From a virus, in the IMG/VR virus record IMGVR_UViG_3300042868_004799, positions 7,286 to 71,285 of that record: 64,000 bases of DNA. One strand, written 5' to 3'. Every line of letters begins with the position of its first letter. Within the stretch, counting starts at the first letter, position 1. Of this stretch, positions 5,619 to 57,172 are shown one piece after another. The notes below the pieces were generated by a model. The model made no database searches. It worked only from the letters and a program-made list of their open reading frames with translations, and was not told where the DNA came from. The translations under genes were made by a program, and so were the position numbers.

Positions 5619-5691
5619 CTCTTGTCATTTCGTTATGTGTCACTGTATCATGTACTTAGATAGAAAGTACGGACTCTACTAAAAAATTATC

Positions 5692-6162
5692 TTAGTATCC
5701 TTCAAGAAGCTTTCTTGGTGTCCAACCGTGTTTTGCTAGGTACAAAAGTCCATGGCGAATAGAGTCAAGAGCATGGCCTTCGCCGCCCTTGTGCCAATAC
5801 CCGAGTTTCTTTAGCGCCTCGTTTGTGAACATGCGCTTTGCGTCAGACGGATTCTGAAAATGAAGAGTACCTTCATGATAGTCGCCTTCACGAAGAAGAT
5901 GCTTAAGAACGCCAATTTGCTCAAGAGAGTATGGTGCCTGTGAGTTCTTTCCAGTCTGCGGAGTAATTGTAAAACTTTCGCAAGCAACGTCAAGAGACCA
6001 TCCGTTTAAGCGCGCATCTAAGATTGCTGAAGCAATTGGTCCAGCAAACTCGTATGGCTGGTATTCGCCTGACCAAACTAAAACGGGCTCATCGCCTTCC
6101 CAAGTAAAGCACGCAATGCCACTTGCTTTTCCTGGATCAACCGCCAAGATCATATTTTTCAT
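5692..6162 (-). CDS. RuvC-like Holliday junction resolvase
   Basis: ILAVDPG, ACESF and HALDSIRH fit the RNase H-fold acidic pattern. Confidence 0.7.
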   Translation of the reverse strand: MKNMILAVDPGKASGIACFTWEGDEPVLVWSGEYQPYEFAGPIASAILDARLNGWSLDVACESFTITPQTGKNSQAPYSLEQIGVLKHLLREGDYHEGTLHFQNPSDAKRMFTNEALKKLGYWHKGGEGHALDSIRHGLLYLAKHGWTPRKLLEGY

Positions 6163-36765: not shown

Positions 36766-37529
36766 TTACTGGCACTCCTATTCTCATCAGCGTCGTCATT
36801 TATTGGTCCACCTGTTACCCAGGCGTCGCATGTTCTTGTCGATGCGCACTTGAAATCAAATGCTTCGCAATAACCAAGCTGCGCAGCATCAATCGCGTCC
36901 CATGCATCTTTTTGGCCTGATCCGCCTTGAGAAATGCCGCTAGCGATGCAGTCGCGCATCTTTGTCGTAACTACAAACATAGCACAGTTTCCGCACACTG
37001 ATTGTTTCGATTCTTCTGGAGTCACAGACCAAATCTCAGCTTTAGCAGCCCAGAATGAATGATTAGGATACTCAGGGTTAAGCGGGCCATAGCCAGCGGT
37101 GCGTATGGCCTTACGACGATTTGTAAGGTTAACTGAAATGCTTTGAGTTGCGGGAGGGCATACGTCAGTGCTGATAGCGTTACCTTGCGGCTCTTCAGCG
37201 GCAGCTGTGACAGGCTCTTCAACAGGCTGGCTGCTGATATCTTCAGACTTAACAAGTCCGCCTGCAGCTTGTTTGCTGTCGTACGTCGTAATAAACCCAA
37301 CAGGGACGTCTACTTGATACAACTGGTACTGATCTTCAAGCGCGTCAAAAAACCTTGAGTTGACCTGCTGCCATCCGCTGCTGTCGCGAACAAACGAAGC
37401 TCCTTTTTCCATGCTTGAAAAAATCAAGTACGGTATTTCGTCTGAAGACGCGTCTACTAGCGCGTAAAGCTCATCTGTGCCAGAAAGCTCTGATGGCCAC
37501 TGTGCTTTTGTAACGTCTTGATCTGTCAT
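36762..37529 (-). CDS. Head-module protein with Cys-rich putative metal/Fe-S domain
   Basis: CPPATQ...YGPLNP...CGNC..F...C...GYC..FDFKCA..RTCDAW..GGP. Confidence 0.7.
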   Translation of the reverse strand: MTDQDVTKAQWPSELSGTDELYALVDASSDEIPYLIFSSMEKGASFVRDSSGWQQVNSRFFDALEDQYQLYQVDVPVGFITTYDSKQAAGGLVKSEDISSQPVEEPVTAAAEEPQGNAISTDVCPPATQSISVNLTNRRKAIRTAGYGPLNPEYPNHSFWAAKAEIWSVTPEESKQSVCGNCAMFVVTTKMRDCIASGISQGGSGQKDAWDAIDAAQLGYCEAFDFKCASTRTCDAWVTGGPINDDADENRSASK

Positions 37530-40500
37530 ACGCTTTTTCCGCCTCGTATCTCATTCTGTTCTTGAGAACTTTTGCCAGTATAGTCCGAGGACTCGACTGG
37601 TCTTATTTTATATTGTATACCAACGCTTGAGAAAGTGCCTGTATCAGTTTTTGCATCAAACTCAAGGTCTTCACCGACAAAGTCGATAAAGAATCGTTTT
37701 CCACCATTGTCATCTATCGCTATAATCGCAAGCGAGTAGTCATCGGCAGATATTGGCAATATCACTCGACTTAGGCTATAAATAATGTAGACGCGACCTT
37801 TTCGCGGCCCAGACATAACCTCAAGTGCTGCCGGCTCCATGATGTAACTTCCAGACATTACAAAATACTCTAGGTCAGATATGTAACTAGAACCGCTAGA
37901 CTCTCCAGAAGAAGTCACAGGTGACTCGCTGAGATTATCCATGGTCCCGTCCCAGGTACGGGTGTGGATTTTCTTTAGCAGCTGACCAATCAAGACTCTT
38001 ATGGCCATCGGAAGATCGAGTGCCGTCATTTTTTTAAGTGCGGATAGTAAGCCGCCGTCTGGCAATTCCCCCGACAGGCCTTGCTCAATTAGCGCGTTAA
38101 GCTGCTCTTTGTATCTTTCTTCTAGTTCTTTTGATTCAGGCTGCTTAACGCCTACAGGAATCATCCATTGATCTTTTTCTTTAGCTACATCAATAAGTTC
38201 TTTAATACTGTCTGCTTTAGCTGGCTTCGGGACTACAATAGTTTGCTCGTACGGGTCGTACACCTGTGGCTCGGTGATGCGGTCGTGTATGTAGTAAAAT
38301 CCTGTAGGGTACCGAACAATAAGTCTGCTCATGTCTTCGTCTGCGACTACGGCTTTTGATCCTACTGGCGCCGGAAGGAACTTCATACCAGCAGAAAGCA
38401 GTGTCCCGGTGAGCTCGTGGAAGTCAACACCTGCATCGTCTGCAGTGTCGCTATTAGAAAGTTCTTTTATAGCGTCATCTAGGTCAGCGACTTCGTCAGG
38501 ATAGACTCCAATACCCGCGGACTGCTCGACCTGCCTGCGGTGCACGTTTCCGATTTCTATAACAAAATCTTCTATTGCTGTTTCTCCAATATTAGCTATT
38601 CCGCGATCTTTCAGCATCTTTATTAACGGTGCGCGGACCTCCATACCGACTGCTATGCGAGACGCGTCAGCAAGATCAAGTGTGTGCTTAAACAGTGTCT
38701 CGCTTGAGTTCACATTTATCGCGTCAAGTATGTCTCGGCCTTCAACACGTTTGCCGTAGTCGTCGTCATAGTTTGCGTACGCGCCTAGCTTTTTTAGAAG
38801 TTTTTTCGACTCAAACAGAATTTCGCCTGTAAAAATTCGTGTCGACGGCGTAGCGCCAGTGTAGACAAATTCATCCGCTGACGGGGTCGTAAACACGTAG
38901 TCCGCACTGCCATAACTAATATCTTGGGCCGACGACTGCCCTGATTCTTGATTTCCTTCAAATACTCTAGTAATAGTTGAGCGAAGTGCTGTACTTTCAA
39001 TAAAATCAGCTAAGTATTTGGTAGTGGCATCTATGACCGTTTGGCGAGGTAAGCCAGTTACAGAAGATGCTTGTTGTTCTTCCATGAGCGTAGCTCTGAC
39101 GTTGTAAAAGTTTATAACGTGCGTGAATGATGCGACGCCTGTTGTATCTGCCAGCGCTTCTCCTACAGCGTCTGGCATAACGTACGAAAGAACTCCAAGT
39201 CTGTCTGCTTCAACAGTGACGTCGTCGGCGGTGATCCCCCACTTGTCGGCAATTTGTTTGAGCAGCTCTGCTCTTTTACTGCTATCTCTTTCATACGTTG
39301 TCGCATCTGTCTGCTTGGCAAACAAGCTTAACATCTTATTTTCAACTAAGACTCGCAAGTCTTCTTTTGTGCTTGGCCGAGGATACCGCACGCCTACAGC
39401 CGTCATAGCGTCGATGATGTCTTGTTCAGTTGCACCGCGTGGAAGATCAATATGCACCATGCCGTCAAATGAATTGGCCCCAAGACCGAATTGGCCGTCG
39501 TCGTTTACGATTACGCTGATATTTACGTCGCTGTCTTTACTTGCAGTTGGCATCTCCATTTTGTACGTTTTTCCGGCCCATTTAATTGGCGATGACGAGA
39601 GCATTGGGTTTTGCATGTCAGGGTTGTACATCAGCTCATCGTCTATTACTACGTTGCCCTTATCGTCGATGCGGGCAGAAGGAACCTCAAGCGGGCCTTC
39701 TTCCCAACCAGCAAGTCCACTACTGGGGTCACGATTATCCTTAAAATCTTCAAGCGCCCAGTGCGTTAGCTTAAACCGAAGACGTACTCTGTTTTCTCCT
39801 GTCGCTTTGTCAATAATGCTATTGACTCTGACTTCGAGGTCTTCAATATCTTCACCGTCCGCAAGCGCTGAAAGCCCTACAACGTGGCCACGGTCTGGAG
39901 CTGACATCGTCTGGACCGCGGCCCTAAGTGATGGAATGCCTTCAACTATGGACGTGGAAAAGTCTATTTTTTCAGGAGCTTTTTCTATAGTAGTAGACTT
40001 TGCTACTGGCGGACTCCAAGGTTCATTTGGATCTATAGAATCTCTTGTCTGGTCAACGACTGCAACTCGCATAACGCGAATAGTTCCGTCAGCGTCCTCG
40101 ATTTTACTGATAACTCTGAATGTAGTACCTCTATCGAAAGTAACTTCGTGTTCATCAGCGTGGTCTGTGCCGCCGCCTAGATAGCCCGGCAGGTAAATAG
40201 CTCTTGTACCAGCGGGAGCTACAATCTCGAGAACAAGCTTCGGTGACTTCGTGCCCGGCACCCGATCTGCGTCGTGTGAAGACGCCCATTCTTCAGCTAT
40301 TGCCAGGTCGATTGTAGCAGATCCGTACGCGCTGTCTTGGAACAAATCGCCTACTTCATACGATCTCATCAACTCATCTGAATAGTCGCTGTGGATTCCT
40401 CTGTACAGGACCATGTCTTCTGGGATTGTAGGCGCTTTCTTAAATAGCATGTCCATGCTATAAATGTTTTCTATAATAAACTTAGCCTTTAGAGGCGATA

Positions 40501-43500
40501 TGACATCGTCTCCAGTTTCTTCTCTAGTGACTCTTATTTGATTACGAAGAAGTCCGTTAATAGTAAAGAAGTCGTCACCTTGGTATGCCCATATCCCGCT
40601 TGACGCACGCTCTTGTTCGTCTGTAACGTCTTCATTGATGAATGGGTCAACAGAAAACTTTAATTTACCGTAGTAGTCATCAAACAGCGCCTCGAGTTCA
40701 CGCCAGGTTTTAGGCGCCGGCATCACCTGCCATTGCGGATTGATGTTAGCAGCATCAACTTCTGATTCTTTTACTTTTTCGACGGGAGGTAGCTCAGGTT
40801 GAACTGCTATTGCTTCTACCTTGATCTTTTTTCTTCCGTCAGCCGCTGAGTCGTCTTTGCTGATCACTCTGAACTCAGTTCCGCGAGCCATTAAAAATTC
40901 GTCTTCTGGCATCTGGTCTGGGAACGCGACGCCTTCGCCGCCAAGAGCATCTGCTACATAAATTCCTTTTGTTCCAGGTGTGGCCACAATTTCAATTATG
41001 TAAAGATTATTGTTGGTGTTGTTTGGAAAACTTGACGCTCTGTTTTCAGAAGTAGTCGTAGATACATATGCAAGATCTCTATATGTATCTCCAACCTCAA
41101 GGCCATCGAAGAACTTAGATACGTCTTTCCCTCCGACTCCTCTATAGAATGTCGCAGGTATTCCAATTGGTTGCGCACCTTCGATTACGGCATCAATGCT
41201 GTCAATGTACGCTTTTGCTCGCGCTATTCCAGATTCGACAGGAAGATCGGCTTTAGCAAGATATTCTGCTGCTGCGGTTTCACCAGTACGAAGAAGCGTA
41301 TTGATGACTTCATACGCGCGTGTGTTCGCGTACGCGTCCAACGCTTCTGTTACTTCAGTCGCGTCAAGCTCTTCTGCTGCATCTTCTATTTCGCTTCCAG
41401 TGCTAAAGTCGATGCCTTCGCCCTGCTCTAAGATTGTAATTTTCCAGACTTGTTTTACACTTCCTTTGATTTGAGTTATTTCGTCAATTCTGTACTTAAT
41501 ACCTGCTGGAAGAAGAACTTCTTGTTCTGTACTTTGTGAAAGTTTTGCGCCTCGAACATTAGGCCCTAATGTAGTCACAAGTTGAATAGGCGCCCATTGC
41601 CCTACGCCGAGCGTATCCAATTCTCTAGGCGCGGTAGCGAACGACTGAAATGCGCGATCTGTGACAATGGATCCTTCTTCAAGATCTTCGGACCCATCCC
41701 AAGTACCAACGCCTCGATATAAAGTAAGCCCTTCTGGAAGCTTTGTCTCCATTAGGTAGCCTTGCATAGTCGGGTAGTGCTCTGATGCTGTTTTTTCTTC
41801 GTCTCTTAAGGATTGATTTATTGCGTCGGAGTACTTACCGGCGTAGGAATCCATTTGTATCCAAGAATATTCGTATTGTTTTTTCTTTGACGGTGGTTTA
41901 AGTACACCTGACAGCCAGTCGTATATGGCGGAGTACCATTCTGTAGTGCCTTCGACAAGTTTTTCTATATCCGCATCATCATCTGCATCACTATTGTTCT
42001 CTTTTGCATAGGCAAGAAAATCTTCAAAAGTTTCTGGAGTGTACAACGTAGTATCTGTCTCGTCAGCTTTTACAAGTTGCTGAATTTCAATTGATTTTTC
42101 TTCTGCTTCAGGAGATTCCGCTGCGCTACGCTGTTCGAGAACGATCTTCGTATATGTATGATCGGCGTCATACGGTTCACCGGTGTCTATGTTCCAACCT
42201 TTGCGCTTTTTTGTGACTTTTTCAACGCTGACAACTCTGTATCGTCCATTTTTAAGCAAAGCTTCATTTTCTGCCATTGCCGTAAAATCGCCAATTGCCA
42301 GACCTTCAGGGTCTGTAATAAACAATGCAACGTCGCCAATATTGCTAGGATCGCCGAAGCCTATAGCTGTAAACAGTCCGTCATCATCTGAAGTTCCACC
42401 GCCTTCGCCAAATTTGGCCCACGAACTTGGCCGCATTGATATTTCTTGCCCAACAGCGGTAAGAGCATGCAGTGGGTGTTCAGGGCTGTCGATGTCTACG
42501 TCTTCGAATGTAAGAGTTCTTACAAAAGTTCCGTCAAGTTTTCCAGCAAAAGACAACACATTCAAAAGTATTCCTGCTAAACTTCTGCTGTGCTCATTTT
42601 GAGTGCCATAGCCCACGTCTAATAAGCTAGGATCATTCATAATAGCCGCGTAGCTTCTCCAGAAGTTGTACAACGATTCGTGTATTTCCTGCACGTCCGT
42701 TAAGGATCCTGGACTTATCCCTGACAGATTTTCACTAGTGCGTTGTCCTCTGAATCTTTTGATTCTGGCTGCTATGCCTTCTTCGTTGTTTCTTGTCCCC
42801 GTATATGCAGCTCCACTAGAGTACGCAGCTATAGCTTGCGCAAACAAAACGCCAATCGCGTCTGCAAGTCTAAAGCGTGCGTCGCCGTCTTCATCGGTCT
42901 CAATTTCGACGCCTAGCAGAGTCCTGAGGCCACTTCCAGGTTTGTTGTAGGTCTCGAGAGGGTAGCTTATGTCGAACGTGCTATTTTGCGCAAACTCAGT
43001 TAAAAATTCTGCAAGATCCTTGTACCGCTTTTTTAGACTTGGTACAGTCTTGCCAGTTTTTGGAAAAGTGTACGTTTCTTCAAACTCTTTTTGCGGCAAT
43101 TCTTCAATGTATGTAGCCCAATTTTCATTGAATTTAGAACCGACAGTCTGGCTTCCACCTTCTCGCAGCAGTTCGACTAAAACTTCGTCAGGTGGAGTTC
43201 TATCAATTACAACAGCATCTGCTTCAGCGGGGTTTGACACCTCACTGCCTAGCTTGTTTACTGTTTCTGGAGAGTTGTCAACTTCAGGAACCGCCGGTGC
43301 TTTTGCTTTTTTGGTAAGCTTGGCTTTTATCAGCGTCATGCCATCGTCTCGTTGAGTCACCTCGACTATTGAGATTTCGGAATCTCTAGCAAGAAGTATT
43401 TCTTGCTGTCCGTCTATTCCCTCAACTTGCCAATTTTTATCTGCAAATTGGTCGTCTTCTGCTAAAGTGGCGTCGATCCCCGGTAAAAAATGAGGAATAC

Positions 43501-52500: not shown

Positions 52501-55500
52501 ATACAGCATCAAACTTCTCGTCCATAGACGCTTCTGGATCTCTAAGAGTCTTGACTGCTTCTTTGTAGTTAAACGTGTCGCTAGGCGCATTTTTGACGAA
52601 ACGGTTTTCGAAGTCACGGTCGTCAAAGCCACCCTGAGCAAATGCAAGTCCTGAATCAGGGCCTATGAAAAGCAAGTCACGCAGCCACTCTGTAGCTTCT
52701 TTTGGTAGGTCGTCGACGTAGTCAGGAGTTACTTGGTTCTTTTCGTCGTAAGCACCAGTCTCAAGGAGAGCGTATCTGCCATCAGGTGTGCGGATATGGA
52801 ATGTCTGTCCATACTCACCGAAAACTATTTCTGAGCCTTCAGGGATATCAGCGTAGGTTTGACCGTCAAGCTCTGGCAGTGCATCTTCATCAGTGACAGG
52901 CGTGCCCTTTGCTGTTCTAAATACAGCATCAAACTTCTCGTCCATAGACGCTTCTGGATCTCTAAGAGTCTTGACTGCTTCTTTGTAGTCAAAGCCACCG
53001 TCGTCGTCATCGTCATCGTCACCCTTGTCTAGCTCAGATTTGATGTACGCATCGATTGCTGGATCGTCCATGTAGTCTTGCTCTGATGGCAAGTTACGAG
53101 TGCCTGCGTCGTCTGGCTCGCCGTCATCGCCAGGCATGAGAGTGCGTGAAGATCCGGGGAACGCATCGATTTTTTCGCCCTTGCTGATTTTCTTCAACTC
53201 AGGGATAATCTTGCCAACGGATTCTGCAGTTGCAATGCTGTCAATGAAGTCTGGGCCTACGTTGTCGTAGCGATAAATTCCGCCGCCCTTGCCGTCTTTA
53301 GAAGTAAACTGTACGAACAGCGAACCTTGTTCTGGCGAGTACGCCATGCGGCTAACTGCTGTGCTGCCTCGTGTGTCGATTTCTTGAAGACCTGTCGGCT
53401 TGGCTGCTGGAGCTGCTTGCTGTCTTGCTGGCCACAAAGCATCAACAACATCGTCGAGCTGTTCTTGCGGAAGGTCAATGATGTCGTCAAGCTTAGCTTG
53501 CTTGATTTTTTCGTCGACTGGTTTGCCGATCTTGTCGATGATAAAGTTTTTCTCTTTATCGCCGTCGGTATGTTCGATTCCGCGAAGGTTAACGTTGCCA
53601 TTCTTTGGATTTGTCCAGACGTCAAGTGGCGTAACTTCACGATCTTTTTCGTGGTACTCGAACTTAAGATCTTTTTTATCTGCGATTGCGGCGTCAATTG
53701 CAGCGCGACGCTCGCTTGGCACAATTGCGTCAAGGTCACTGACGTTCGATGCTTCTGGCGAAGCTGCGGGTGCAGCTTTTCCTGCGCGAATAGCTTGAAG
53801 CTCGGCGTCGTATTTTTTGATCTCTTCAGCAGGGTTAATGAATTTGCCTGTAGCCTCATTCTTCATGCTTCTGCCGAGCGGGACGGCGTACAGCTCGTCG
53901 AGCTTCATACGAACTAGAGCTTCGCGGTCGGACGCTCCGTCATATATGTTTTTATACGTATCGAACTTCTTAGGGTCTTTATCGCGAAGGTAGTCAAGCT
54001 CTGTTCCGCTAATAACTTGGCGCACGGCGTCAGCGGTAATATTTCCAGCGAGAAATTGTGCGACTGCGGCAGCAATATTTTTTGCTTGATCGGGGTCAAG
54101 ATTTCCACTGTTGACTTCAGCACCAATTACGCGAGCAACTGAATTCATGTCGCCTTTAAGATCGGCGGCATCTTGAAGCGCCCAGTACAAACGGTCAACT
54201 ACAGGGTCAGTGCCAGGTGTTACAACTGATGGTGGCGGTACGATGTTGTATTTTTCCCAGCCGATTTCGGTACGAGCTTCTGGAGGGAAATTGTCTTCTG
54301 GACCGTTGTACTTCCAAAATCCTTCTGATCCGCCAGTTTTTATAAAGTCCCAATTTTTTGGGTTCGCAAGGTCATTATGGAAACGTTCTTTTGTTTCGCT
54401 AGTTTGAGCATCAGTAGACTGCGGCGCATCGATAACGGCGCGCACGGCTTTATCATCGACTTGACCAGCAATGTACTGCGCCATTACTGCAGCAATGTTT
54501 TTTGCCTCGTCAGGCTCAATGTTGCCGTCATTGACTTCAGCGCCAAGTGCACGGGCGAATGAGCCCATGTTACCTTCGCCTGTCATGACATCGTCAACCG
54601 CGTTGTTTATACGGATAGCTGCCGGACGAGTCTTTTTGTTTTCGTTGAGTACGATGTCCCAAAACGGTTTCGGTCCTGGCGCAGGTCGGTCTTCAGGACG
54701 CACGTTCGGTCTAAACTCTGGTGCGGGCCTACCTGGTCTAGGGATAAACGTGTCTGAATCCGGGCCAACAACTCCTGGCGGTGGAGTCATGTAGTAGGCC
54801 GCGTAGTCTGCCATAGTGTCAGAGTCGTTGCGAGGGCCGATGTATTCCCAGCGTCCACCTGGGCCGCCTGGGTTTGCTTGCCACTTCCAGTTTTTTGGAT
54901 TGTTTATGTTGCGCTCGCGTCTTTCAGCGTCGCGCTCTTCTCTTGCCTGAGCTCTTGCTTCTTGCTCTGGCGTCTTTGGCTTTGGTGGCTTTGGTGGCTT
55001 TGGAAGAAAGCTGTCTGTGTCGATGTTGACCCAGTTGTCTTCTTTTTTAGGATAAGCGCGCAGCGGCTCGATCTTGTCGACCGTGAATGTACGATCACCG
55101 GCGTCAGTTTCGGAATAGCCAACAACGTTTGTCTTGCCATTTTTGGGATTGTCGTAAATTCTTTCTGGCTTGAAAATGCGTTCTTTTCCGCCGTAGCTAA
55201 TAACGACACTGTTGCCATCGTCGATTGCTTTTTGGAGTTGGGCTCGGGTGTCTACGTCATTTGTTCCGGAAATGCGAACAGGCTCTGTTGATGGTGCCGG
55301 TGCTTCACTTTCTGGAGAAATTTCTGCTTTTTTGACTGGCGCGACGGGCTTCTTTGCTGGGGCAGACATTTGACCAGCTATAAATGTGCGTGACTCTCCG
55401 TTTTCATCAAGCCCAACTGCATTATATGTGCCTGTTTTTTTATTTACATACCCATCTGTCGGCGTAATTTCACGGTCTTTTCCTTTATAAGAAAAACGGA

Positions 55501-57172
55501 AATTTTGCTTGGCATGCAATGATCTAGCAAACGCATTTGCTGCGCTTACGTCGCTGTCTGGGTCAAAGCTGTGGACTGCTGGAAGGTTTTCAATTTCGCC
55601 AGCGTTAACTGCGTCGCGCAATTGAGAAAGAGTCTCTATTCTTTCTTTTACAAATCTCTTTTTTATAGCTTCTGCATCGGGGCCAGTGATAAGTTGTTTT
55701 GTGTCTTTTCCTTCTGGCTCATCGTTTTCTTTCCAATTTCCTTTAGAATTTTTGTAGCCACCCCTAGGAATTTCCGCCGGAATTACTTTGTAAACGCCGT
55801 CACGGTAGAAGTAGTCGGCGTCTGCTTGCGCTTGTGCTGCTACTTCATCGTCAGTTAGCGCGCCGTGATCGACTCCTCCTTTACGCGCGTTCTCCATTTG
55901 AGCAACAGATCTCTTTTTTGCAGGTTTACCTGCTGGGACTTGCGGTGTTTCCTTGACTTGTGATGGCGCTGGAGTTCCTGCATCCGCTGCTTGAAGAACT
56001 TTTTCATAGTCGTCTTGGTCTTTAAGAGCTGCAGCTTGAATGTCTGCCCAGCTGCTGCCAGATGCTACTTCACCACCAACGCCGTTAGTTGTGAGGTTGG
56101 CACGACGGAGTGACCACTTTGGTGATTCTGCGTTGTACGGATCAGTTGACGGTACTTGCGCAAAATAACCGTCATCGGACTGGTATGTCAAAAAGCCAGG
56201 GCGTGCTGCGCCTGGCACATTAGTTGCGGAAAGGGTCCAGCCGTCAGGCATCGCCATTGGGTTGTCCATGTTGTCTGTGTCAATAGCGTCTGCACGATTG
56301 CCGATGATGTTTTTTGTGTTGACGTTCGGTGCATCGCGGAGCATGTCTTGCGTAAGAACAGCTTTTGTGGCCTCGCCCTTTGACGCTGGAAGATTGTAGA
56401 TACCATTTGGAATTCCATCAACACCGACAAACTCAACTTGAATAGCGTCATCGCCAGCCATTTCACTGCCTGCACCTACAACGCGTCCTGATGCTGAGCC
56501 AGAACTGCCTGCGCGGCTGCCACTCTTGAAATTGAAGTTAAAGTTAAAGCCACCGCCCTGCTCAGCAAACCGACCTTTACGGTCACGGCGCTGAATCATT
56601 GCGCGAGCGCGACGAGCAGCAGATGAGTTGCCTCCAAGGCCGAAGCCACCAAATGCGATCAATGCACGAGGAGCATCAAAGCCAGGGTCAATCGCGGCTG
56701 TAATTGGAACGTACACGGCACCGAGCGCAGAAAGACGTGCAAATGCGTGTCGACGCTCGATTGAGCCATGCTCAAGAGAGTGTGCTGTCGCTACAAGCGG
56801 ACGAACTGATTCGTCGATCATAGGGTCCGCAGCAATCCACTGCGCACGTGCGTTGCGAAGCGCTGATGCTGTCATTGCATTGGGAGTCGTAGAAAGAGGG
56901 TGACCCATAGGAAGAAGGTCAGTGTTAGACAAAGACGCAACTGTTACTTTATTTTTTGATGCAAGAGAGATGAAGCTCGACACAGCGCGAAGTGCTGAAA
57001 ATGCTCGAGCCTCTGGTGCCGAATTCTTTGTCTTTTTAAGATCGCGGTTCACTACCTCAAGCGCTGACAGATCAGTCACACGGCGGGCTGGAAGCATTTT
57101 TGCATTGGCCTTACTGGCCATTGCAAGTACGTCGATGTGTAGGGTGTCAAGCCACTTTCTACTGTTGCTCAC
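37526..57172 (-). CDS. 6548-aa polyvalent protein: 3 WYL-like, KTSC, 4 x ~140-aa repeats, ART, PI3/4K-HipA-like kinase, DEDDh exonuclease, SF1 helicase, tandem ADP-ribosyltransferases
   Basis: Uninterrupted 19.6-kb ORF with 4-nt overlaps with both neighbours. Motifs include AGTGKTT/DEAQD/GDPEQAIY, DYETTG/HNAPFD/HTADAD, GSNPGG/NYD/RLDPGG and repeated YRG..S[TF]..[EQ]xE. Confidence 0.9.
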   Translation of the reverse strand: MSNSRKWLDTLHIDVLAMASKANAKMLPARRVTDLSALEVVNRDLKKTKNSAPEARAFSALRAVSSFISLASKNKVTVASLSNTDLLPMGHPLSTTPNAMTASALRNARAQWIAADPMIDESVRPLVATAHSLEHGSIERRHAFARLSALGAVYVPITAAIDPGFDAPRALIAFGGFGLGGNSSAARRARAMIQRRDRKGRFAEQGGGFNFNFNFKSGSRAGSSGSASGRVVGAGSEMAGDDAIQVEFVGVDGIPNGIYNLPASKGEATKAVLTQDMLRDAPNVNTKNIIGNRADAIDTDNMDNPMAMPDGWTLSATNVPGAARPGFLTYQSDDGYFAQVPSTDPYNAESPKWSLRRANLTTNGVGGEVASGSSWADIQAAALKDQDDYEKVLQAADAGTPAPSQVKETPQVPAGKPAKKRSVAQMENARKGGVDHGALTDDEVAAQAQADADYFYRDGVYKVIPAEIPRGGYKNSKGNWKENDEPEGKDTKQLITGPDAEAIKKRFVKERIETLSQLRDAVNAGEIENLPAVHSFDPDSDVSAANAFARSLHAKQNFRFSYKGKDREITPTDGYVNKKTGTYNAVGLDENGESRTFIAGQMSAPAKKPVAPVKKAEISPESEAPAPSTEPVRISGTNDVDTRAQLQKAIDDGNSVVISYGGKERIFKPERIYDNPKNGKTNVVGYSETDAGDRTFTVDKIEPLRAYPKKEDNWVNIDTDSFLPKPPKPPKPKTPEQEARAQAREERDAERRERNINNPKNWKWQANPGGPGGRWEYIGPRNDSDTMADYAAYYMTPPPGVVGPDSDTFIPRPGRPAPEFRPNVRPEDRPAPGPKPFWDIVLNENKKTRPAAIRINNAVDDVMTGEGNMGSFARALGAEVNDGNIEPDEAKNIAAVMAQYIAGQVDDKAVRAVIDAPQSTDAQTSETKERFHNDLANPKNWDFIKTGGSEGFWKYNGPEDNFPPEARTEIGWEKYNIVPPPSVVTPGTDPVVDRLYWALQDAADLKGDMNSVARVIGAEVNSGNLDPDQAKNIAAAVAQFLAGNITADAVRQVISGTELDYLRDKDPKKFDTYKNIYDGASDREALVRMKLDELYAVPLGRSMKNEATGKFINPAEEIKKYDAELQAIRAGKAAPAASPEASNVSDLDAIVPSERRAAIDAAIADKKDLKFEYHEKDREVTPLDVWTNPKNGNVNLRGIEHTDGDKEKNFIIDKIGKPVDEKIKQAKLDDIIDLPQEQLDDVVDALWPARQQAAPAAKPTGLQEIDTRGSTAVSRMAYSPEQGSLFVQFTSKDGKGGGIYRYDNVGPDFIDSIATAESVGKIIPELKKISKGEKIDAFPGSSRTLMPGDDGEPDDAGTRNLPSEQDYMDDPAIDAYIKSELDKGDDDDDDDGGFDYKEAVKTLRDPEASMDEKFDAVFRTAKGTPVTDEDALPELDGQTYADIPEGSEIVFGEYGQTFHIRTPDGRYALLETGAYDEKNQVTPDYVDDLPKEATEWLRDLLFIGPDSGLAFAQGGFDDRDFENRFVKNAPSDTFNYKEAVKTLRDPEASMDEKFDAVFRTAKGTPVTDEDALPELDGQTYADIPEGSEIVFGEYGQTFHIRTPDGRYALLETGAYDEKNQVTPDYVDDLPKEATEWLRDLLFIGPDSGLAFAQGGFDDRDFENRFVKNAPSDTFNYKEAVKTLRDPEASMDEKFDAVFRTAKGTPVTDEDALPDLSEYGSGTETYADIPEGSEVVFGTSQTFYIRTPDSRYAVIETGATNEKNQVTPDYVDSMPIQAAEVLRDLLNIGSNAGLMFAEGGFDDRDFENSFRRALPSDKFDYKEALATSKDPNATPNDKFDAIFQALDGVPVADVLKELSGGETYADIPKRSVALFTAFDGDEILIRKPDGKYAIIALGATNDKNQVTPDDVDAMPTQAGEYIDQLLDDHDYFRGGFTNKEFDDEFRSQRAAAEAATASEYNPDDIKGLDELEPIETEDGGDGFAVEMFDEVFDTPPGAYKPDIFGVYVPKGRTNEVSIDFTDDPKQLATRFGVAELGKALSDAILPSDGNDATGYGSLKFASGDEPIKAEAILAALKENDVNPDIILAGLYDRALGDEDRDMTNMERVMELKNAFDSEYGTSAPSDDFTGQVLDETPRDRDIMLAKKLNERLAYPSPAQNAVIQLENFVEPNQNLIDLANDLMRRQDNDDRYDDINLAEILDQYLPLATSADPEEREEFRGLWGMMMSLDGGSSHEERDLKFSDSFRSALLSAVERTIGIPDESKDAYDELISNYGGYPEFVAGKKAIATGVDDLTSTTSAAAFYRLVKAAGRPNDIPLYRSIGVRSDDPLMQTYTTVGSTFDIDPRSFTSASLQTGTFGDAMYSPTDPEVDHVIFRVAPGKATSISAESLSWFVGEQEHFAYGSYRVTDISRQPSRITGRPDDFIVTIEQTQETSRSMSDMRDDLGFLGVDTYGDISDWERYGESEGSNPGGFYRAPDGSTYYAKQARSRSNGENEALASAFYQEFGIRSSVVGFGNIGDELQIITPLIPGAQTNAYEVLRSKKGTAYRAQLHDGFAIDAWLSNYDVTGLNYDNIVTDNEGNAVRLDPGGALMWRATGGPKDWFGDDAFEFDNMRDKLLARIPASAEVFGSMTDEQLKNSARRLLNITPGRIDEIVDSVITDKKEAEFLKETLKRRRDYILAKTGLDKEAADSDILGEPTSLAQSMGFAAQDLQPGDITAGDSFTISRIFRDSETPKGKVSVEGYYPGHELQRKEWNENTEISAVRGGKVPEMGTQPALHRPKAPYAPKPPAFTGPIASLLDGATSWEDVKERLRGKDIIVFDYETTGFPDRDKGDFSTNQPVSIGAVRIRDGKPVDYFNMFMNPGEPLGLWARENLKDEDGNPLTDATLQDSIPKAGAHSSFVEWAGPGAVFAAHNAPFDMGVFNSALEGAGIEYQNGGVIDTLKLAQQLIPSRSQKVKPDPNGPERHTLGALADFFGINIAAPATSEDAMAPLPEWMTPEERANLPVVEAGESNGWHTADADAYTVARLIPALLDHISEQGKPLSDLAAEGAEYDAKKQNFDSAVDKYTADLLDYETKKAIAAAWNCKGGGNIVSSAALLAAAGDDDSCSVPTIDEIISRSIPDASDFVDPDGISSGAIDGSSGSPLPDRGSDDRDEELIPLPDGIDEAELYSKEKFQPTAQQRNVVRGILSGDDVVVLAKAGTGKTTTLNLAARVIQKLFPKKRILYMAFNRNAAEEARGKMPANVEVRTADSVAYSFVKTQRPELFKKFAQKDTAMYSNVDIAKYLNVPSITLDDETLKPYEVAALLRKAIYSYLTSADESFSDVHLLEHFPDDAVTPDLQASAKAWIDDIFNPKGQLPFSFGEMKKIWSLSKPDFSDTASGINAPVDLVFLDEAQDTNDVLGTVIRSQNVQAVLVGDPEQAIYQFMGAKDQLQTFDAPHRLPLTESWRYGPEIGGFANRFLAFKEKVLGYKNVNRGLGRGAEGQVLSPGTMENPDAIIARSNAGAFIDMIRLMDDDKVVGVPANFMADIKNFVDSVEWLKNGGMSSGVKRPANMPNDLRPFKDWAEVEAEAAKGEDSDLGVKTSILVDMVDEQGVQGLRDVIKKLRVFGDKAKAQIKSGPQETSDLPDDLSAGAYGNITSDLQFAVDPTGVAISGNGTYAAKETIKKAGAKWDAANKQWKLPAKNDAEARKALTKLKNLLSGGKTAEAAEAAEASDEMAGIDVVVATAHQMKGLEFGNVRASNDFRGPRKDKTTGEMIYPPVEEIHLAYVVATRAQLAFDPGSLSWIYDFTNDADESPFAPVATSAEETIADDVASSAIPMPAANIEPDAPTETPTPEAPTPEAGGEGGGEEVPPAPPAVSDEGPSKDETSVYGALDKVFYAIQDAADKGADDFGRSVGTKAIEALKKTLADLIGRNPKVRELLDSIVSDLRNKRHSDPEDSVITGQNNLPETFGRVTAPEQEEQVAEPEVVELPSDPETEPTPTPVAPSTTPDVPGEEPETAPGPEVVTDEAAPAGTSEGMLTAFDALQAFVDTDPEMKTLKESNKALARSIRDKVADIRLRLESGSISLEQAQNELLDLESLIPPFVPGSKNNDSLNLDVLRDQIGDIASEIDMAMYGRAVNPKLPPPDKVDDQGRPLGVSKDGVFLTPGMRVRDKNGYSGTVEEYNKNDWLTVKVRFDLDPRDPEKIPKGNWGPGVARMPRSPGTLTTITADEAPWVDPRTDKEKANPKSKDKAPPRLDEQLEGYKKMQEGLTSKVPLNPNAGKDETGEDDEGGGGVEPPAPEPVDDGGGTSSVTEAEAAAAADRVNEDIRSSGNEGYDSATSPSFLQALSDEMKAEGANVRYLTLKLDSEVIVNVEDAKILLNYYLGEPYLPKAEAPQGATEAPEAAPESPVTFDQVAKAYELAGFTEKSSNLPSEGLIDYITYGTEDINGFLMAEQEGDSEWEPEGGEREWIQEFVEEIDKIMDQAPKFDVPVTVYRGTIYSKDKAPRVGQTIESPRYLSTSLSPLVAEDFTRLERHYTYGEVANGLGAEDVKVVYEIEIPPGEKFLSIPHFLPGIDATLAEDDQFADKNWQVEGIDGQQEILLARDSEISIVEVTQRDDGMTLIKAKLTKKAKAPAVPEVDNSPETVNKLGSEVSNPAEADAVVIDRTPPDEVLVELLREGGSQTVGSKFNENWATYIEELPQKEFEETYTFPKTGKTVPSLKKRYKDLAEFLTEFAQNSTFDISYPLETYNKPGSGLRTLLGVEIETDEDGDARFRLADAIGVLFAQAIAAYSSGAAYTGTRNNEEGIAARIKRFRGQRTSENLSGISPGSLTDVQEIHESLYNFWRSYAAIMNDPSLLDVGYGTQNEHSRSLAGILLNVLSFAGKLDGTFVRTLTFEDVDIDSPEHPLHALTAVGQEISMRPSSWAKFGEGGGTSDDDGLFTAIGFGDPSNIGDVALFITDPEGLAIGDFTAMAENEALLKNGRYRVVSVEKVTKKRKGWNIDTGEPYDADHTYTKIVLEQRSAAESPEAEEKSIEIQQLVKADETDTTLYTPETFEDFLAYAKENNSDADDDADIEKLVEGTTEWYSAIYDWLSGVLKPPSKKKQYEYSWIQMDSYAGKYSDAINQSLRDEEKTASEHYPTMQGYLMETKLPEGLTLYRGVGTWDGSEDLEEGSIVTDRAFQSFATAPRELDTLGVGQWAPIQLVTTLGPNVRGAKLSQSTEQEVLLPAGIKYRIDEITQIKGSVKQVWKITILEQGEGIDFSTGSEIEDAAEELDATEVTEALDAYANTRAYEVINTLLRTGETAAAEYLAKADLPVESGIARAKAYIDSIDAVIEGAQPIGIPATFYRGVGGKDVSKFFDGLEVGDTYRDLAYVSTTTSENRASSFPNNTNNNLYIIEIVATPGTKGIYVADALGGEGVAFPDQMPEDEFLMARGTEFRVISKDDSAADGRKKIKVEAIAVQPELPPVEKVKESEVDAANINPQWQVMPAPKTWRELEALFDDYYGKLKFSVDPFINEDVTDEQERASSGIWAYQGDDFFTINGLLRNQIRVTREETGDDVISPLKAKFIIENIYSMDMLFKKAPTIPEDMVLYRGIHSDYSDELMRSYEVGDLFQDSAYGSATIDLAIAEEWASSHDADRVPGTKSPKLVLEIVAPAGTRAIYLPGYLGGGTDHADEHEVTFDRGTTFRVISKIEDADGTIRVMRVAVVDQTRDSIDPNEPWSPPVAKSTTIEKAPEKIDFSTSIVEGIPSLRAAVQTMSAPDRGHVVGLSALADGEDIEDLEVRVNSIIDKATGENRVRLRFKLTHWALEDFKDNRDPSSGLAGWEEGPLEVPSARIDDKGNVVIDDELMYNPDMQNPMLSSSPIKWAGKTYKMEMPTASKDSDVNISVIVNDDGQFGLGANSFDGMVHIDLPRGATEQDIIDAMTAVGVRYPRPSTKEDLRVLVENKMLSLFAKQTDATTYERDSSKRAELLKQIADKWGITADDVTVEADRLGVLSYVMPDAVGEALADTTGVASFTHVINFYNVRATLMEEQQASSVTGLPRQTVIDATTKYLADFIESTALRSTITRVFEGNQESGQSSAQDISYGSADYVFTTPSADEFVYTGATPSTRIFTGEILFESKKLLKKLGAYANYDDDYGKRVEGRDILDAINVNSSETLFKHTLDLADASRIAVGMEVRAPLIKMLKDRGIANIGETAIEDFVIEIGNVHRRQVEQSAGIGVYPDEVADLDDAIKELSNSDTADDAGVDFHELTGTLLSAGMKFLPAPVGSKAVVADEDMSRLIVRYPTGFYYIHDRITEPQVYDPYEQTIVVPKPAKADSIKELIDVAKEKDQWMIPVGVKQPESKELEERYKEQLNALIEQGLSGELPDGGLLSALKKMTALDLPMAIRVLIGQLLKKIHTRTWDGTMDNLSESPVTSSGESSGSSYISDLEYFVMSGSYIMEPAALEVMSGPRKGRVYIIYSLSRVILPISADDYSLAIIAIDDNGGKRFFIDFVGEDLEFDAKTDTGTFSSVGIQYKIRPVESSDYTGKSSQEQNEIRGGKSV
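52032..52989. repeat. Near-perfect in-frame tandem repeat, 420-bp period (about 2.3 copies), within a four-unit array spanning about 51340-52995
   Basis: Sequence lines 420 nt apart read identically (e.g. 52081/52501/52921 and 52141/52561). Units 3 and 4 are progressively more diverged. Confidence 0.95.

Follow-up and report, generated by a model that had tools for sequence, protein, structure and literature searches.

A giant polyvalent multi-enzyme protein encoded in the head operon of an uncultured lake actinophage

Results

A 6548-codon gene within the head operon

The window, a stretch of 64,000 nucleotides from a metagenomic contig, belongs to an uncultured lake phage whose hosts are actinobacteria. 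It carries a run of head genes in the order portal, 579-aa protein, giant gene, 255-aa protein, 1559-aa protein and capsid; these genes, and all features of the giant protein given below, lie on the minus strand. The portal gene (58908..60665; phrog_776, 1.5e-105) is followed by the gene of a 579-aa ferritin-like protein with a DUF5824 domain (57169..58908; Pfam Ferritin 3e-14, DUF5824 5.7e-9), and then by the open reading frame (ORF) studied here (37526..57172), which has 6548 codons plus a stop and encodes a multi-enzyme protein of 714.8 kDa and pI 4.54. Downstream of it we find genes for a 255-aa protein with no family match in Pfam or PHROGs (36762..37529), for a 1559-aa head protein whose PHROG matches are annotated as portal, head maturation protease or virion structural protein (32086..36765), and for the major head protein (30053..31960; phrog_777, 7.7e-85). 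The giant gene is translationally coupled to its head-gene neighbours: start/stop overlaps of 1-4 bases link all genes from portal through the 1559-aa gene, the overlaps of the giant gene being 4 bases, and a 125-bp gap separates the 1559-aa gene from the capsid gene. The order 3' of the giant gene is conserved: a homologue of the 255-aa protein follows it in 9/9 related loci, a homologue of the 1559-aa protein in the 8/8 that reach it, and the capsid gene in the 7/7 that reach it.

A first-pass annotation of this DNA had placed the giant gene between portal and protease, a position where MuF proteins are to be expected. Its location within the head operon stands, but the portal gene is not adjoining, as the 579-aa ferritin-like/DUF5824 protein intervenes, and the expected MuF domain is not there: Phage_Mu_F (PF04233) gave no match at E<=0.001 on the entire 71-kb contig, while control genomes were matched. 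The homologue of the 1559-aa protein in phage DSL-LC01 is annotated 'capsid maturation protease'. We considered the 1559-aa protein itself as a MuF protein and rejected this assignment because it has no sequence relative in the PDB and no Pfam match.

The giant ORF initiates at a GTG and its translation shows a single stop, the terminal one. A stop-free run of 6548 codons has a log10 P of -150 (stop p = 0.051, from the base composition of the window), and GC content at codon position 1 (0.49-0.64) is higher than at positions 2 and 3 in 14/14 bins of 500 codons each. An ATG located 17 codons downstream of the GTG provides an alternative start that gives 6531 aa, and both the 6531-aa and the 6548-aa forms are on record.

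An assembly artefact, either a chimera or separate genes fused by collapsed or expanded repeats, would be one way to explain a frame of this length. The contig is a metagenome assembly with an estimated completeness of 44%; contigs of the likely-source sequencing run break within a 420-bp repeat array, where short pieces have a depth of 50.8 and 54.2 as against 11.5-12.7 in the flanks, about four times as much; and three sequencing runs show branching with loose ends at 43990/44037 and 48681/48909. A candidate in-frame variant, shorter by 1067 codons, concerns the stretch at 40.7-44.0 kb. Nevertheless, the likely-source run tiles the whole ORF outside the array with zero differences, and contigs from four sequencing runs, three of them other than the likely source, cover 27-30 of its 30 bins. 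The repeat unit of 420 bp is exactly 140 codons, so the frame is kept at any copy number of the array. Moreover, an 88%-identical protein from a separate record (P0003) is colinear with the giant protein at residues 1550-5014 and 5270-6548, and the domain order is identical in 23 relatives. An artefact is therefore highly improbable, and the giant ORF is a genuine gene and not a chimera, with the array copy number given as assembled. The single uninterrupted ORF of the first-pass annotation is thus confirmed by its one terminal stop, its coding periodicity and its colinear relatives, and the chimera that had been raised as an objection to it did not hold, as sequencing runs tile the ORF and relatives keep the domain order.

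A conserved N-terminal leader with an Arg-rich motif

The first 400 residues (55973..57172) form a leader, recognised by profile matches in cluster representatives and by its invariant residues (D85, L86, L87, H91, P92, W112, S137, R196 and D197). It contains a DUF5824-like module (~9-107, with the motif DLLPxxHP) and an Arg-rich motif (~186-214, RaxxQRRDRxGRFAxxGGG). At least 322 cluster representatives of large proteins match the leader at E<=0.001, and in 150/150 of the relatives listed, out of these 322, the match begins within residues 2-49, that is, at the extreme N-terminus and before differing cargo, in keeping with the 'docking-like' N-terminal domain proposed earlier. The cargo includes GNATs (P0140, P0125, P0136) and ArdcN plus MPTase-PolyVal (P0180, P0026).

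By sequence, the leader has no match in Pfam, PHROGs or the PDB, and the ESM Atlas gave no usable match. A search for related loci with the single N-terminal sequence as query found no relative. Likewise, no paralogue came out of a BLAST comparison between the giant protein and the remaining ORFs of the window (E<=1e-3), and shared modules emerge with profiles only. The leader HMM, searched against 163 ORFs, matches the 579-aa protein (E 4e-11), the DUF5824 part of which is paralogous to the first 100 residues of the giant protein. The Arg-rich motif is common to the leader and the 1559-aa head protein (residues 350-378; E 8.5e-5 among 163 ORFs), and the corresponding regular expression, applied to the window and 10 loci, matches 8 times, each time in a homologue of the giant protein, a homologue of the 1559-aa protein or the post-portal protein of DSL-LC01. 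From its sequence, this motif is a candidate capsid-targeting tag, and it could also serve something besides capsid targeting. A complex prediction for the portal (585 aa) and the leader (400 aa), both entered as alignments, scored 0.00 twice and points neither way.

Small domains and repeats of the N-terminal half

The region behind the leader had been described as carrying three WYL-like domains, a KTSC domain and a repeat array. Three WYL-like internal repeats are indeed present (residues 558-618, 660-701 and 1169-1231) and weak WYL and KTSC matches fall where they had been placed, but the Pfam scores stay just under the thresholds. WYL-like repeats 1 and 2 (residues ~551-705; 55058..55522) are found in about 16-19 of 25 relatives; WYL (PF13280) reaches 20.6 bits for the whole protein, at 644-705, where the cut-off is 21.8, and another weak stretch lies at ~1158-1186. 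Repeat 3 (17.8 bits) and the KTSC-like domain (PF13619 at 1270-1321, 22.7 bits against a cut-off of 25) lie together in residues ~1150-1330 (53183..53725). Precomputed annotation has PF13280 in 2 and PF13619 in 14 of the 25 relatives. Between these two regions there is a variable internal duplication (residues 737-914/918-1054; 54011..54964; 33% identity, E 1e-20) that is covered by 0-3 of the 25 relatives.

The repeat array is borne out as well. Self-comparison of the protein shows four units of ~140 aa, as assembled, in residues 1394-1945 (51338..52993), seen in the DNA as a 420-bp tandem repeat (51704-52993) whose copies 1 and 2 are 93% identical; it was found in 3-4 of the 25 relatives. 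After the array comes a conserved module that we call 'pre' (residues 1951-2140; 50753..51322), present in 14-23 of the 25 relatives across 1951-2150 and in 94 of 148 leader-bearing proteins. Long acidic low-complexity linkers are also present in the giant protein.

A kinase, an exonuclease and a helicase in the central region

In the centre of the protein, the first-pass annotation had read an ADP-ribosyltransferase (ART, ~49950-50250), a PI3/4K-HipA-like kinase, a DEDDh exonuclease (~48080-48720) and an SF1 helicase (~45830-47640). All four readings hold: those of the ART (here ART1, described with the other ARTs below) and the kinase by predicted structure only, that of the exonuclease by an RNase_T match above cut-off together with motifs, and that of the helicase, which is of UvrD type, by PF00580 and phrog_1967.

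The kinase-like domain (residues 2448-2692; 49097..49831) is of the atypical protein-kinase type. Its predicted structure shows a two-lobed kinase fold with an ATP-binding Lys and a catalytic Asp/Asn/Asp, the nearest folds being CtkA, CotH, PI4KII and HipA; the corresponding residues are GSNPGG 2467-2472, K2485, E2496, D2559/N2564/D2566 and D2587. No Pfam kinase family matches the domain by sequence. It also occurs standalone in at least 134 bacterial genome stretches from many phyla (284 pattern matches tested). From cellular genomes, a scan for the ART1-kinase core in one genome per species recovered nothing but the kinase domain, with two loci reaching slightly upstream of it, and no prophage copy of the whole giant protein was found with two patterns in one genome per species.

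A beta-rich 'link' module (residues 2700-2810; 48743..49075) precedes the exonuclease. It is highly conserved, with many invariant columns and with beta strands in the predicted structure, and it is duplicated in ArdC-type relatives. The exonuclease itself (residues ~2817-3050; 48023..48724) is a DEDDh, RNase T/DnaQ-like 3'-5' enzyme by RNase_T (PF00929, 2820-2975, 38.8 bits against a cut-off of 24), by phrog_192 (1e-21) and by a PDB profile match to the PolC exonuclease 9qpc (2.2e-7). It contains FDYETTG 2822, HNAPFD 2916 and WHTADADA 3018, which we take to be the Exo I-III motifs of a DEDDh exonuclease. The helicase follows at residues 3173-3781 (45830..47656), with PF00580 at 61.7 bits against a cut-off of 23, phrog_1967 at 1.4e-68 over 3173-3781 and a match to FBH1 9xzj at 1.5e-17; UvrD_C (PF13361) stays at 17.2-19.5 bits against a cut-off of 25.6. 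Its motifs are Walker A 3204, DEAQ 3396, motif III 3421 and motif VI 3775, and a weak DUF5710-like insert lies at ~3664-3694. Behind the helicase is a segment labelled SH3-like in the first-pass annotation (residues ~4100-4210; 44543..44875), which is present in 22 of the 25 relatives and has no Pfam match.

At least five ADP-ribosyltransferase domains

ARTs of the R-S-E type are defined by a catalytic Arg, a Ser-x-Ser/Thr motif and (E/Q)-x-E. The giant protein carries at least five such ARTs, one supported by structure and four by Pfam. ART1 (residues ~2140-2432; 49877..50755), which has a helical N-terminal subdomain, gave no Pfam match. Its motif residues are R2320, SFTSAS 2347-2352 and E2396-x-E2398, with the Arg and the ExE invariant in 23 sequences. 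The structural neighbours of the predicted ART1 model include SpvB, C2-I, HopU1 and XopAI, toxins and effectors that act on eukaryotic targets.

The other four lie behind the helicase, where ADPrib_exo_Tox (PF03496) scores 127.5 bits over four stretches of the C-terminal half (cut-off 23.4). ART-A (residues 4423-4613; 43334..43906) has 31.2 bits, R4487, STS 4510-4512 and Q4589-x-E4591, and matches phrog_26651 (2.5e-4). ART-B (residues 5106-5241; 41450..41857) has 38.3 bits, R5153 and E5216-x-E5218, so that Arg and ExE are present and the Ser motif is weak; it is missing in the 88%-identical relative P0003, which is without 5015-5269. ART-C (residues 5263-5456; 40805..41386) is the best Pfam stretch (96.9 bits for the chunk; phrog_3895, 3.7e-30), with R5344, STT 5371-5373 and E5423-x-E5425. 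ART-D (residues ~5519-5704; 40061..40618), delimited with an in-protein HMM, has R5591, S5618 and E5674-x-E5676 and matches phrog_802, 'Alt-like RNA polymerase ADP-ribosyltransferase' (1.3e-14). Thus Arg, Ser motif and (E/Q)-x-E are all present in ART1, ART-A, ART-C and ART-D. More generally, the ARTs, kinase, exonuclease and helicase keep their catalytic residues, and the residues that were checked show no change across 23 sequences.

Five ART-like domains had been read after the helicase; four of them are ART-A to ART-D, while the fifth, at ~4850-5015, is a candidate by motif spacing. We do not count it as a sixth R-S-E ART, as the ART1 profile touches only its ExE strand (score -2.3) and the ART-A-to-D profile does not match. 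This candidate falls in a variable segment (residues 4640-5090; 41903..43255) that is covered mostly by 7-9 of the 25 relatives (2-9 over 4651-5100).

The C-terminal module

The C-terminus, left as 'unknown' in the first-pass annotation, can be divided into three parts. Part 1 (residues 5730-5990; 39203..39985) is beta-rich in the model and conserved in relatives. It is followed by a candidate DarT/Tpt1-like ART fold of the H-Y-E type (residues ~6002-6218; 38519..39169), with H6018, R6069, Y6092 and E6158 invariant. Part 3 (residues 6230-6548; 37529..38485) is helical and then forms a small beta domain in the model, and is covered by 15-19 of the 25 relatives (10 in the last bin). Searched with Foldseek in PDB and BFVD, the C-terminal model returned nothing at E<=0.001. 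The top 13 structure matches of this model are helical bundles except for four DarT entries and Tpt1, and the DarT matches span almost the entire DarT chain. The invariant His, Tyr and Glu occur in matching order, with a local resemblance between ADYVF and ADYVPF. Together these observations hint, from a predicted model, that the C-terminus may hold a DarT/Tpt1-like ART fold. Sequence-profile searches of the PDB, in which the C-terminal module and the leader served as queries, yielded chance-level rows only (NSE2 0.023, GrpE 0.12), and Pfam and PHROG scans of the members of both alignments showed no recurrent family.

Relatives of the giant protein in lakes

Four data sources yielded 23 colinear metagenomic relatives, which are 3984-7986 aa long. 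A comparison of architectures, which the first-pass annotation had proposed, shows the same domain order in all 23, with a constant scaffold and a variable zone of ART, kinase and Nudix cassettes. This variable zone suggests an arms race over targets. A nucleotide search of a phage collection with 12 kb of the giant gene found nothing. The portal protein matches more than 2000 clusters (E<=1e-20), with identities of 71-97% for the 120 listed; at least 24 sequencing runs hold the stretch or part of it, 23 of the 24 listed being labelled lake-water or freshwater metagenomes. The phage lineage is common in lakes and is related to the Actinomycetia phage DSL-LC01. Given this abundance, the enzymes of the giant protein could shape infection of abundant freshwater actinobacteria.

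Discussion

The domain inventory and the operon position agree with the first-pass description of a polyvalent, head-module-encoded multi-enzyme protein. We infer, with a probability of about 0.6, that it is a polyvalent effector carried as capsid cargo and released into the host. The protein would be made late, together with the head proteins, and would enter the procapsid via its N-terminal leader, for which the Arg-rich motif common to the 1559-aa protein is a candidate tag. The head protease may then cut it into pieces, and when the phage next infects a cell, the protein would exit the capsid along with the DNA. Inside that cell, modification of host proteins would fall to the ARTs and the kinase, in the manner of T4 Alt, and the exonuclease-helicase pair would work on the ends of DNA or RNA. 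The C-terminal DarT/Tpt1-like fold, should it be real, would ADP-ribosylate a nucleic acid. The combined outcome could be host takeover, counter-defence, or both. We found no peptidase domain able to process the giant protein. Against packaging we count the size of the protein, since at 715 kDa it is about twice as large as the 3398-aa virion RNA polymerase of phage DEV, and its domain content, with MuF, MPTase-PolyVal and LPD absent and WYL and KTSC below the Pfam thresholds.

Alternatively, the protein could be made late and remain unpackaged, acting in the infected cell or after lysis; in a 'Trojan horse' version, its VIP2-like ARTs would poison eukaryotic grazers. Such a strategy has been proposed for the VIP2-type ARTs of 24 freshwater phages (Kavagutti et al. 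2019, PMC6802176), and the structural neighbours of ART1 include eukaryote-targeting toxins and effectors (SpvB, C2-I, HopU1, XopAI). However, Pfam scans found no secretion signal, translocation domain or receptor-binding component, and in every relative examined the giant gene forms part of the head operon and is translationally coupled to it. In addition, the chain that bears the ARTs also contains a DNA helicase, an exonuclease and a kinase with bacterial proteins as its closest folds (CtkA, CotH, HipA), a fusion that fits an intrabacterial role, and leader-bearing relatives carry the antirestriction domain ArdC. We thus regard an unpackaged protein as unlikely. Still less probable to us is a mainly structural or ejection protein, be it an internal head body, a scaffold or an envelope conduit, in which the enzymes are secondary or inactive. 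The gene lies where internal and ejection proteins are encoded, its product contains repeat arrays and long linkers of acidic, low-complexity sequence, and a conduit has been proposed for the large polyvalent protein of phi24B (bioRxiv 10.64898/2026.04.10.717836). Yet five ARTs, the kinase, the exonuclease and the helicase all retain their catalytic residues, and the ones checked do not vary among 23 sequences, which argues for selection on enzyme activity; and the DSL-LC01 homologue is half-size, without exonuclease and helicase, so no fixed length is needed.

Going beyond capsid cargo released into the host, a bolder and in our view doubtful reading is that the family is a phage counterpart of polymorphic-toxin/MARTX-style delivery. 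Leader and Arg-rich tag would load one chain of 0.4-0.9 MDa, which would be threaded into the host with about ten activities; the cassettes (ARTs, kinases, Nudix) would track host defences, the DarT-like domain would direct DNA ADP-ribosylation, a weapon of bacteria against phages, at the host chromosome or at competing phages, and WYL and KTSC would switch the enzymes in response to nucleotide or nucleic-acid signals. Should the protein be packaged, its size relative to the DEV polymerase raises the question of how a 715-kDa chain, or its fragments, would enter and leave the capsid. The constant scaffold with its variable zone, the undescribed leader and the shared Arg-rich motif are directly testable handles.

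Polyvalent proteins were described in 2017 with 2 to 15 domains per protein, including one plasmid protein of 12,242 aa; those of phages sit among late genes, packaging is known for T4 Alt and the N4 virion RNA polymerase, P1 DdrB undergoes processing before it is packaged, and P1 DarB is an antirestriction protein (PMC5512222). More recently, gp47 of phi24B, a 2811-aa polyvalent protein, was detected in virions by proteomics (bioRxiv 10.64898/2026.04.10.717836), and the DEV virion RNA polymerase is the largest packaged phage protein named in the literature found, as judged from partial text. The giant protein resembles this class in combining, within one chain, small domains and at least 8 that are enzymatic (5 ARTs, kinase, exonuclease, helicase), in being encoded among the late/packaging genes of a portal-terminase phage, in its UvrD-like SF1 helicase, which also occurs in gigantic actinomycete plasmid examples (PMC5512222), and through leader-sharing relatives that carry ArdcN and MPTase-PolyVal, domains of that class. 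The claim that a protein of this size and combination is not recognised was accordingly overstated, as the class has been known since 2017 (PMC5512222) and relatives of the same family reach 7986 aa.

Several features set it apart. The polyvalent kinase of the class is, in the available text of PMC5512222, of the Ser/Thr/Tyr type without C-lobe and comes from phages of Verrucomicrobia and Bacteroidetes, whereas the predicted kinase of the giant protein resembles CtkA, CotH, PI4KII and HipA, a likeness at the level of fold with no sequence-level Pfam match. A helicase-adjacent DEDDh exonuclease, at least five ARTs per chain and a scaffold-plus-cassette layout were not found in that text, where 'exonuclease' occurs once. 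With T4 Alt the protein shares an R-S-E ART encoded among late genes, ART-D matching the Alt-like phrog_802; Alt, however, is a single-domain protein of a myovirus with demonstrated packaging (PMC5512222), whereas the giant protein, a putative capsid cargo, fuses at least five ARTs with other enzymes. We did not find the family in the literature on polyvalent proteins, phage ARTs, freshwater actinophages or DarT, in which supplementary lists of architectures may contain relatives; a search for literature on actinobacteriophage polyvalent proteins found none, and one for GodonK found only the DSL-LC01 paper.

The closest comparison is with DSL-LC01 (OQ999401), whose portal and capsid proteins are 75% and 78% identical to those of this phage. 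Its protein WJZ48510 (3289 aa) occupies the same slot, with the portal gene on one side and the 'capsid maturation protease' gene on the other, and has the leader, WYL, ART1-kinase, SH3-like and C-terminal modules in common with the giant protein; it is half the size, lacks exonuclease, helicase and ART cassettes, is annotated as hypothetical, and is not mentioned in the available part of the DSL-LC01 paper (PMC10611076). Some cultured phages, too, carry a gene with the kinase in this post-portal slot: in Gordonia phage GodonK, gene 67 (1479 aa) lies directly after the portal gene, and its product has the kinase domain, and at the sensitivity used only this domain, in common with the giant protein. 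Although it is without the MuF, MPTase-PolyVal and LPD domains specific to the class and its leader is absent from Pfam and PHROGs, the giant protein is a member of the known class of polyvalent proteins and represents an undescribed family within it.

The giant reading frame and its assembly

The giant protein is encoded by a single ORF in the ORF listing of the window (37526..57172, minus strand), which begins with GTG and specifies 6548 aa (714.8 kDa, pI 4.54). The source is a viral IMG/VR contig of 71,285 bp with an estimated completeness of 44%. Translation revealed no internal stops, and at the base composition of the window (stop p = 0.051 per codon) a frame of this length would be stop-free by chance with log10 P ~ -150. 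GC content at codon position 1 (0.49-0.64) exceeds that at positions 2 and 3 in 14/14 bins, so that the frame looks coding over its whole length. An identical 6548-aa sequence is on record, together with a 6531-aa version that starts at an ATG 17 codons downstream, on contigs of up to 86,992 bp.

The assembly was checked by aligning Logan contigs from four lake-water or metagenome runs to window 37400-57300. In the likely source run the ORF is tiled by three contigs with zero differences (37400-44019, 43991-52061 and 52960-57300), and the sole gap falls within a 420-bp tandem repeat (51704-52993), represented in this run only by short pieces with depths of 50.8 and 54.2 versus 11.5-12.7 in the flanks (about 4x). 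The assembly therefore does not fix the copy number of the repeat, which may differ from the assembled one; since the unit is exactly 140 codons, the giant frame is kept at any copy number. The three further runs cover 30/30, 29/30 and 27/30 bins of the region. P0003, a relative of the giant protein from another record and with its N-terminus cut, is 88% identical and colinear over residues 1550-5014 and 5270-6548, while residues 5015-5269, including ART-B (see below), are missing. Weighing the repeat gap against this tiling, coverage and colinearity, we consider it highly improbable that the frame is an assembly artefact or chimera.

In one contig of a 2022 metagenome, positions 40780 and 43989 are linked through 7 other letters, with a net in-frame loss of 3201 bases (1067 codons). 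This junction, seen in a single contig of depth 2.9 with 62 bases on one side, is a hint that some strain lacks cassettes ART-A to ART-C. Contigs of three runs also branch into unlike sequence, as loose ends, at 43990/44037, where the variable cassette zone starts, and at 48681/48909, the boundary between the conserved link and exonuclease; such branching is as expected if co-occurring strains have conserved modules in common but unlike cassettes.

Domain organization and catalytic residues

Domains were delimited with Pfam, PHROGs, PDB sequences, internal repeats and two AlphaFold2 models (residues 1951-2800, mean pLDDT 77.1; residues 5730-6548, mean pLDDT 65.7) whose input alignments contained 21-22 relatives; residue i begins at window base 57172-3(i-1). 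A conserved leader (residues 1-400), without a match in Pfam, PHROG or PDB, precedes three WYL-like repeats (558-618, 660-701 and 1169-1231; 20.6 bits, below the cut-off of 21.8), an internal duplication found by internal repeat comparison (737-1054), a KTSC-like domain (1270-1321; 22.7 bits, below the cut-off of 25) and an array of four units of ~140 aa (1394-1945), evident both as internal repeats and as the 420-bp DNA repeat. The central part contains a module without family assignment that is conserved by its coverage in relatives ('pre', 1951-2140), the ADP-ribosyltransferase ART1 (~2140-2432) and a CtkA/CotH/PI4KII/HipA-like kinase (2448-2692), both assigned from predicted structure, a conserved beta module defined by alignment and model ('link', 2700-2810), an RNase_T/DEDDh exonuclease (2817-3050; Pfam, 38.8 bits) and a UvrD-type helicase (3173-3781; 61.7 bits, phrog_1967 1.4e-68, FBH1 1.5e-17). 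Beyond it lie a segment labelled SH3-like in the first-pass annotation and conserved by coverage in relatives (~4100-4210), four ADPrib_exo_Tox domains detected by Pfam and an in-protein HMM (ART-A to ART-D; 4423-4613, 5106-5241, 5263-5456 and 5519-5704) and a conserved C-terminal module defined by alignment and model (5730-6548). The positions that the first-pass annotation gave for the KTSC, ART, kinase, exonuclease and helicase each land on a domain found here. It had also counted five more ART-like domains after the helicase, of which we recover four as ARTs; in the fifth (~4850-5015) the motifs are spaced as expected, but no profile reached significance.

In a 23-sequence alignment, Arg2320 and Glu2396-x-Glu2398 of ART1 are invariant, as are the Gly-rich loop 2467-2472, Lys2485, Glu2496, Asp2559, Asn2564, Asp2566 and Asp2587 of the kinase. 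Each of ART-A to ART-D carries the Arg and the (E/Q)-x-E, with an S-T-S-like motif in ART-A, ART-C and ART-D, and catalytic motifs were found in the exonuclease and the helicase. Judged by these motifs, eight or more of the enzymatic domains appear to be active.

Apart from helical bundles, the top 13 matches in an exhaustive structural comparison of the C-terminal model comprised just Tpt1 and four DarT entries. These span model residues 273-489 (giant residues 6002-6218), a stretch in which 22 sequences all have His6018, Arg6069, Tyr6092 and Glu6158. The Pfam DarT model matched 0/7 members of the C-terminal alignment, a PDB profile search with the module gave no relevant match, and hhalign against seven actinobacterial DarT stretches aligned only the strand of the invariant Glu (probability 0.2, E 0.3). 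Residues 6002-6218 are a structural candidate for a DarT-like domain to which the sequence-level tests lent no support.

A family of giant proteins

A search limited to proteins of 3601-11459 aa retrieved 25 relatives besides the giant protein itself. Twenty-three of them (3984-7986 aa; from ENA, JGI, NCBI and Logan, on contigs of up to 152 kb) have a common order of leader, WYL/KTSC, pre, ART1, kinase, link, exonuclease, helicase, SH3-like segment, variable zone and C-terminal module, which makes the window's protein a large, though not the largest, member. The block from pre to exonuclease and the DarT-like part are present in 23/23, the helicase in 22/23 and the leader in 19/23; the four relatives without it probably begin at contig ends. 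The zone that separates the SH3-like segment from the C-terminal module varies in how many copies of ARTs and kinases it contains and of which kind they are. Precomputed annotation places a Nudix domain (PF00293), absent from the window's protein, in 13/25 relatives.

The kinase domain also occurs by itself in bacterial genomes, where testing 284 pattern matches gave at least 134 such stretches. Of these, 80 were retained as loci; they come from many phyla, Streptomyces, Pseudonocardia and Dehalococcoidia among them, and Endozoicomonas has several copies. The same kinase-like domain (32-35% identity) occurs in proteins annotated as 'ADP-ribosyltransferase' of Pseudomonas, Yersinia and Aeromonas phages, such as the 1222-aa gp117 of Pseudomonas phage Dolphis, so the ART-kinase pairing may extend beyond actinophages. 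Unannotated matches in Escherichia, Enterobacter and Morganella phages contain this domain within the same identity range, and all these phages are of ~86-96 kb.

The leader and an Arg-rich motif

A phmmer search of residues 1-400 against 1.84 billion representatives matched 322 proteins at E<=0.001, 103 of them at E<=1e-30. In the 150 matches listed, the leader always begins at residues 2-49 of the protein, and these proteins are mostly of 1,800-5,300 aa. BLAST of 148 leader-bearing proteins against segments of the giant protein detected pre in 94, the kinase in 50, the exonuclease in 41, the DarT-like part in 39, ART1 in 36 and the helicase in 21, and some have almost nothing beyond the leader in common with it. 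Among six sampled with Pfam, three carry multiple GNAT acetyltransferases and one carries ArdcN and MPTase-PolyVal, tying the family to bona fide polyvalent-protein domains; the relative P0026 combines ArdC-type domains with exonuclease and helicase. Constant at the N-terminus while the cargo behind it changes, the leader has the arrangement to be expected of a trafficking or anchoring domain.

We also compared the leader profile with the other 163 ORFs of the window. One match is between profile positions 9-107 and the DUF5824 part of the 579-aa ferritin-like protein encoded upstream (E 4e-11, with DLLPxxHP common to both); another pairs positions 175-203 with residues 350-378 of the 1559-aa head protein (E 8.5e-5). 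The latter match is an Arg-rich motif, approximately R-a-x-x-Q-x-R-D-(R/K)-x-G-(R/K)-F-A-x-M-G, which includes the invariant leader residues Arg196 and Asp197. A regular expression for its core, run on ORFs of at least 200 aa in the window and ten related loci, hit eight places: the giant homologues of the window and of phage DSL-LC01, the 1559-aa homologues of the window and four loci, and the post-portal protein of DSL-LC01. Common to otherwise unrelated head-operon proteins, the motif is plausibly a capsid-targeting or docking tag.

Head-operon context

From the portal gene (58908-60665) the operon runs through the genes for the 579-aa, giant, 255-aa and 1559-aa proteins, with overlaps of 1, 4, 4 and 4 bases, to the capsid gene. 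Across nine related loci, the giant gene is followed by a 255-aa homologue in 9/9; where the sequence extends far enough, a 1559-aa homologue comes next (8/8) and then the capsid gene (7/7). The gene had been said to lie where MuF proteins usually do; there is no MuF domain on the contig, so the comparison is positional only. Outside the window, the contig carries a WhiB-family gene (G000:C1:694-897; 65 bits, E 6.1e-19), which fits an actinobacterial host.

The 579-aa protein (57169-58908, minus strand) has an N-terminal ferritin/Dps-like domain (Pfam Ferritin, 3e-14) and a DUF5824 domain, is unusual inside a head operon and may be another internal or ejected protein. Its residues ~238-321 recur with 53-76% identity inside or between pieces of the 1559-aa homologues of five relatives (L001 34990-35274, L007 15368-15631, L009 15448-15804, L010 10475-10726 and L011 16694-16942) and, in a sixth, within the 255-aa homologue (L008 13051-13914); insertion of a mobile segment or shuffling of a small domain may account for this. 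The annotation of DSL-LC01 splits the 1559-aa counterpart (L001 30947-35866) into three genes, each named 'capsid maturation protease'. Upstream of the portal region, 61924-62907 (minus strand) encodes a GlcNAc-type glycosyltransferase (PF11397, 3.8e-20).

Proposed role and comparison with known systems

The genomic context, the leader, the Arg-rich motif and precedent together favour, with a probability of about 0.6, a multi-enzyme cargo that would be made late, loaded into the capsid and ejected into the host, where the role of each enzyme would be that suggested by its family. A late protein that is not packaged appears unlikely, also in the 'Trojan horse' form directed at grazers that PMC6802176 put forward, and a mainly structural or ejection role somewhat more so.

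DSL-LC01 (129 kb, from lake water, with a predicted actinobacterial host) differs from the window in that the giant homologue in the same slot, of 3289 aa, lacks the exonuclease and helicase; no mention of it was found among 12 of the 21 passages on this phage in PMC10611076. We found no description in the literature of the family, the leader, the ART-kinase-exonuclease-helicase scaffold or the cassette zone, which supplementary architecture lists may include. The multi-enzyme polyvalent concept itself is already known. Passages of PMC5512222 describe the packaging of T4 Alt and the N4 virion RNA polymerase, the processing of P1 DdrB ahead of packaging and P1 DarB as an antirestriction protein; packaged ARTs and Nudix proteins appear in passages of PMC9503650, and part of a preprint on phi24B reports the 2811-aa gp47 in virions. 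These reports serve as precedent for the packaged cargo that we propose.
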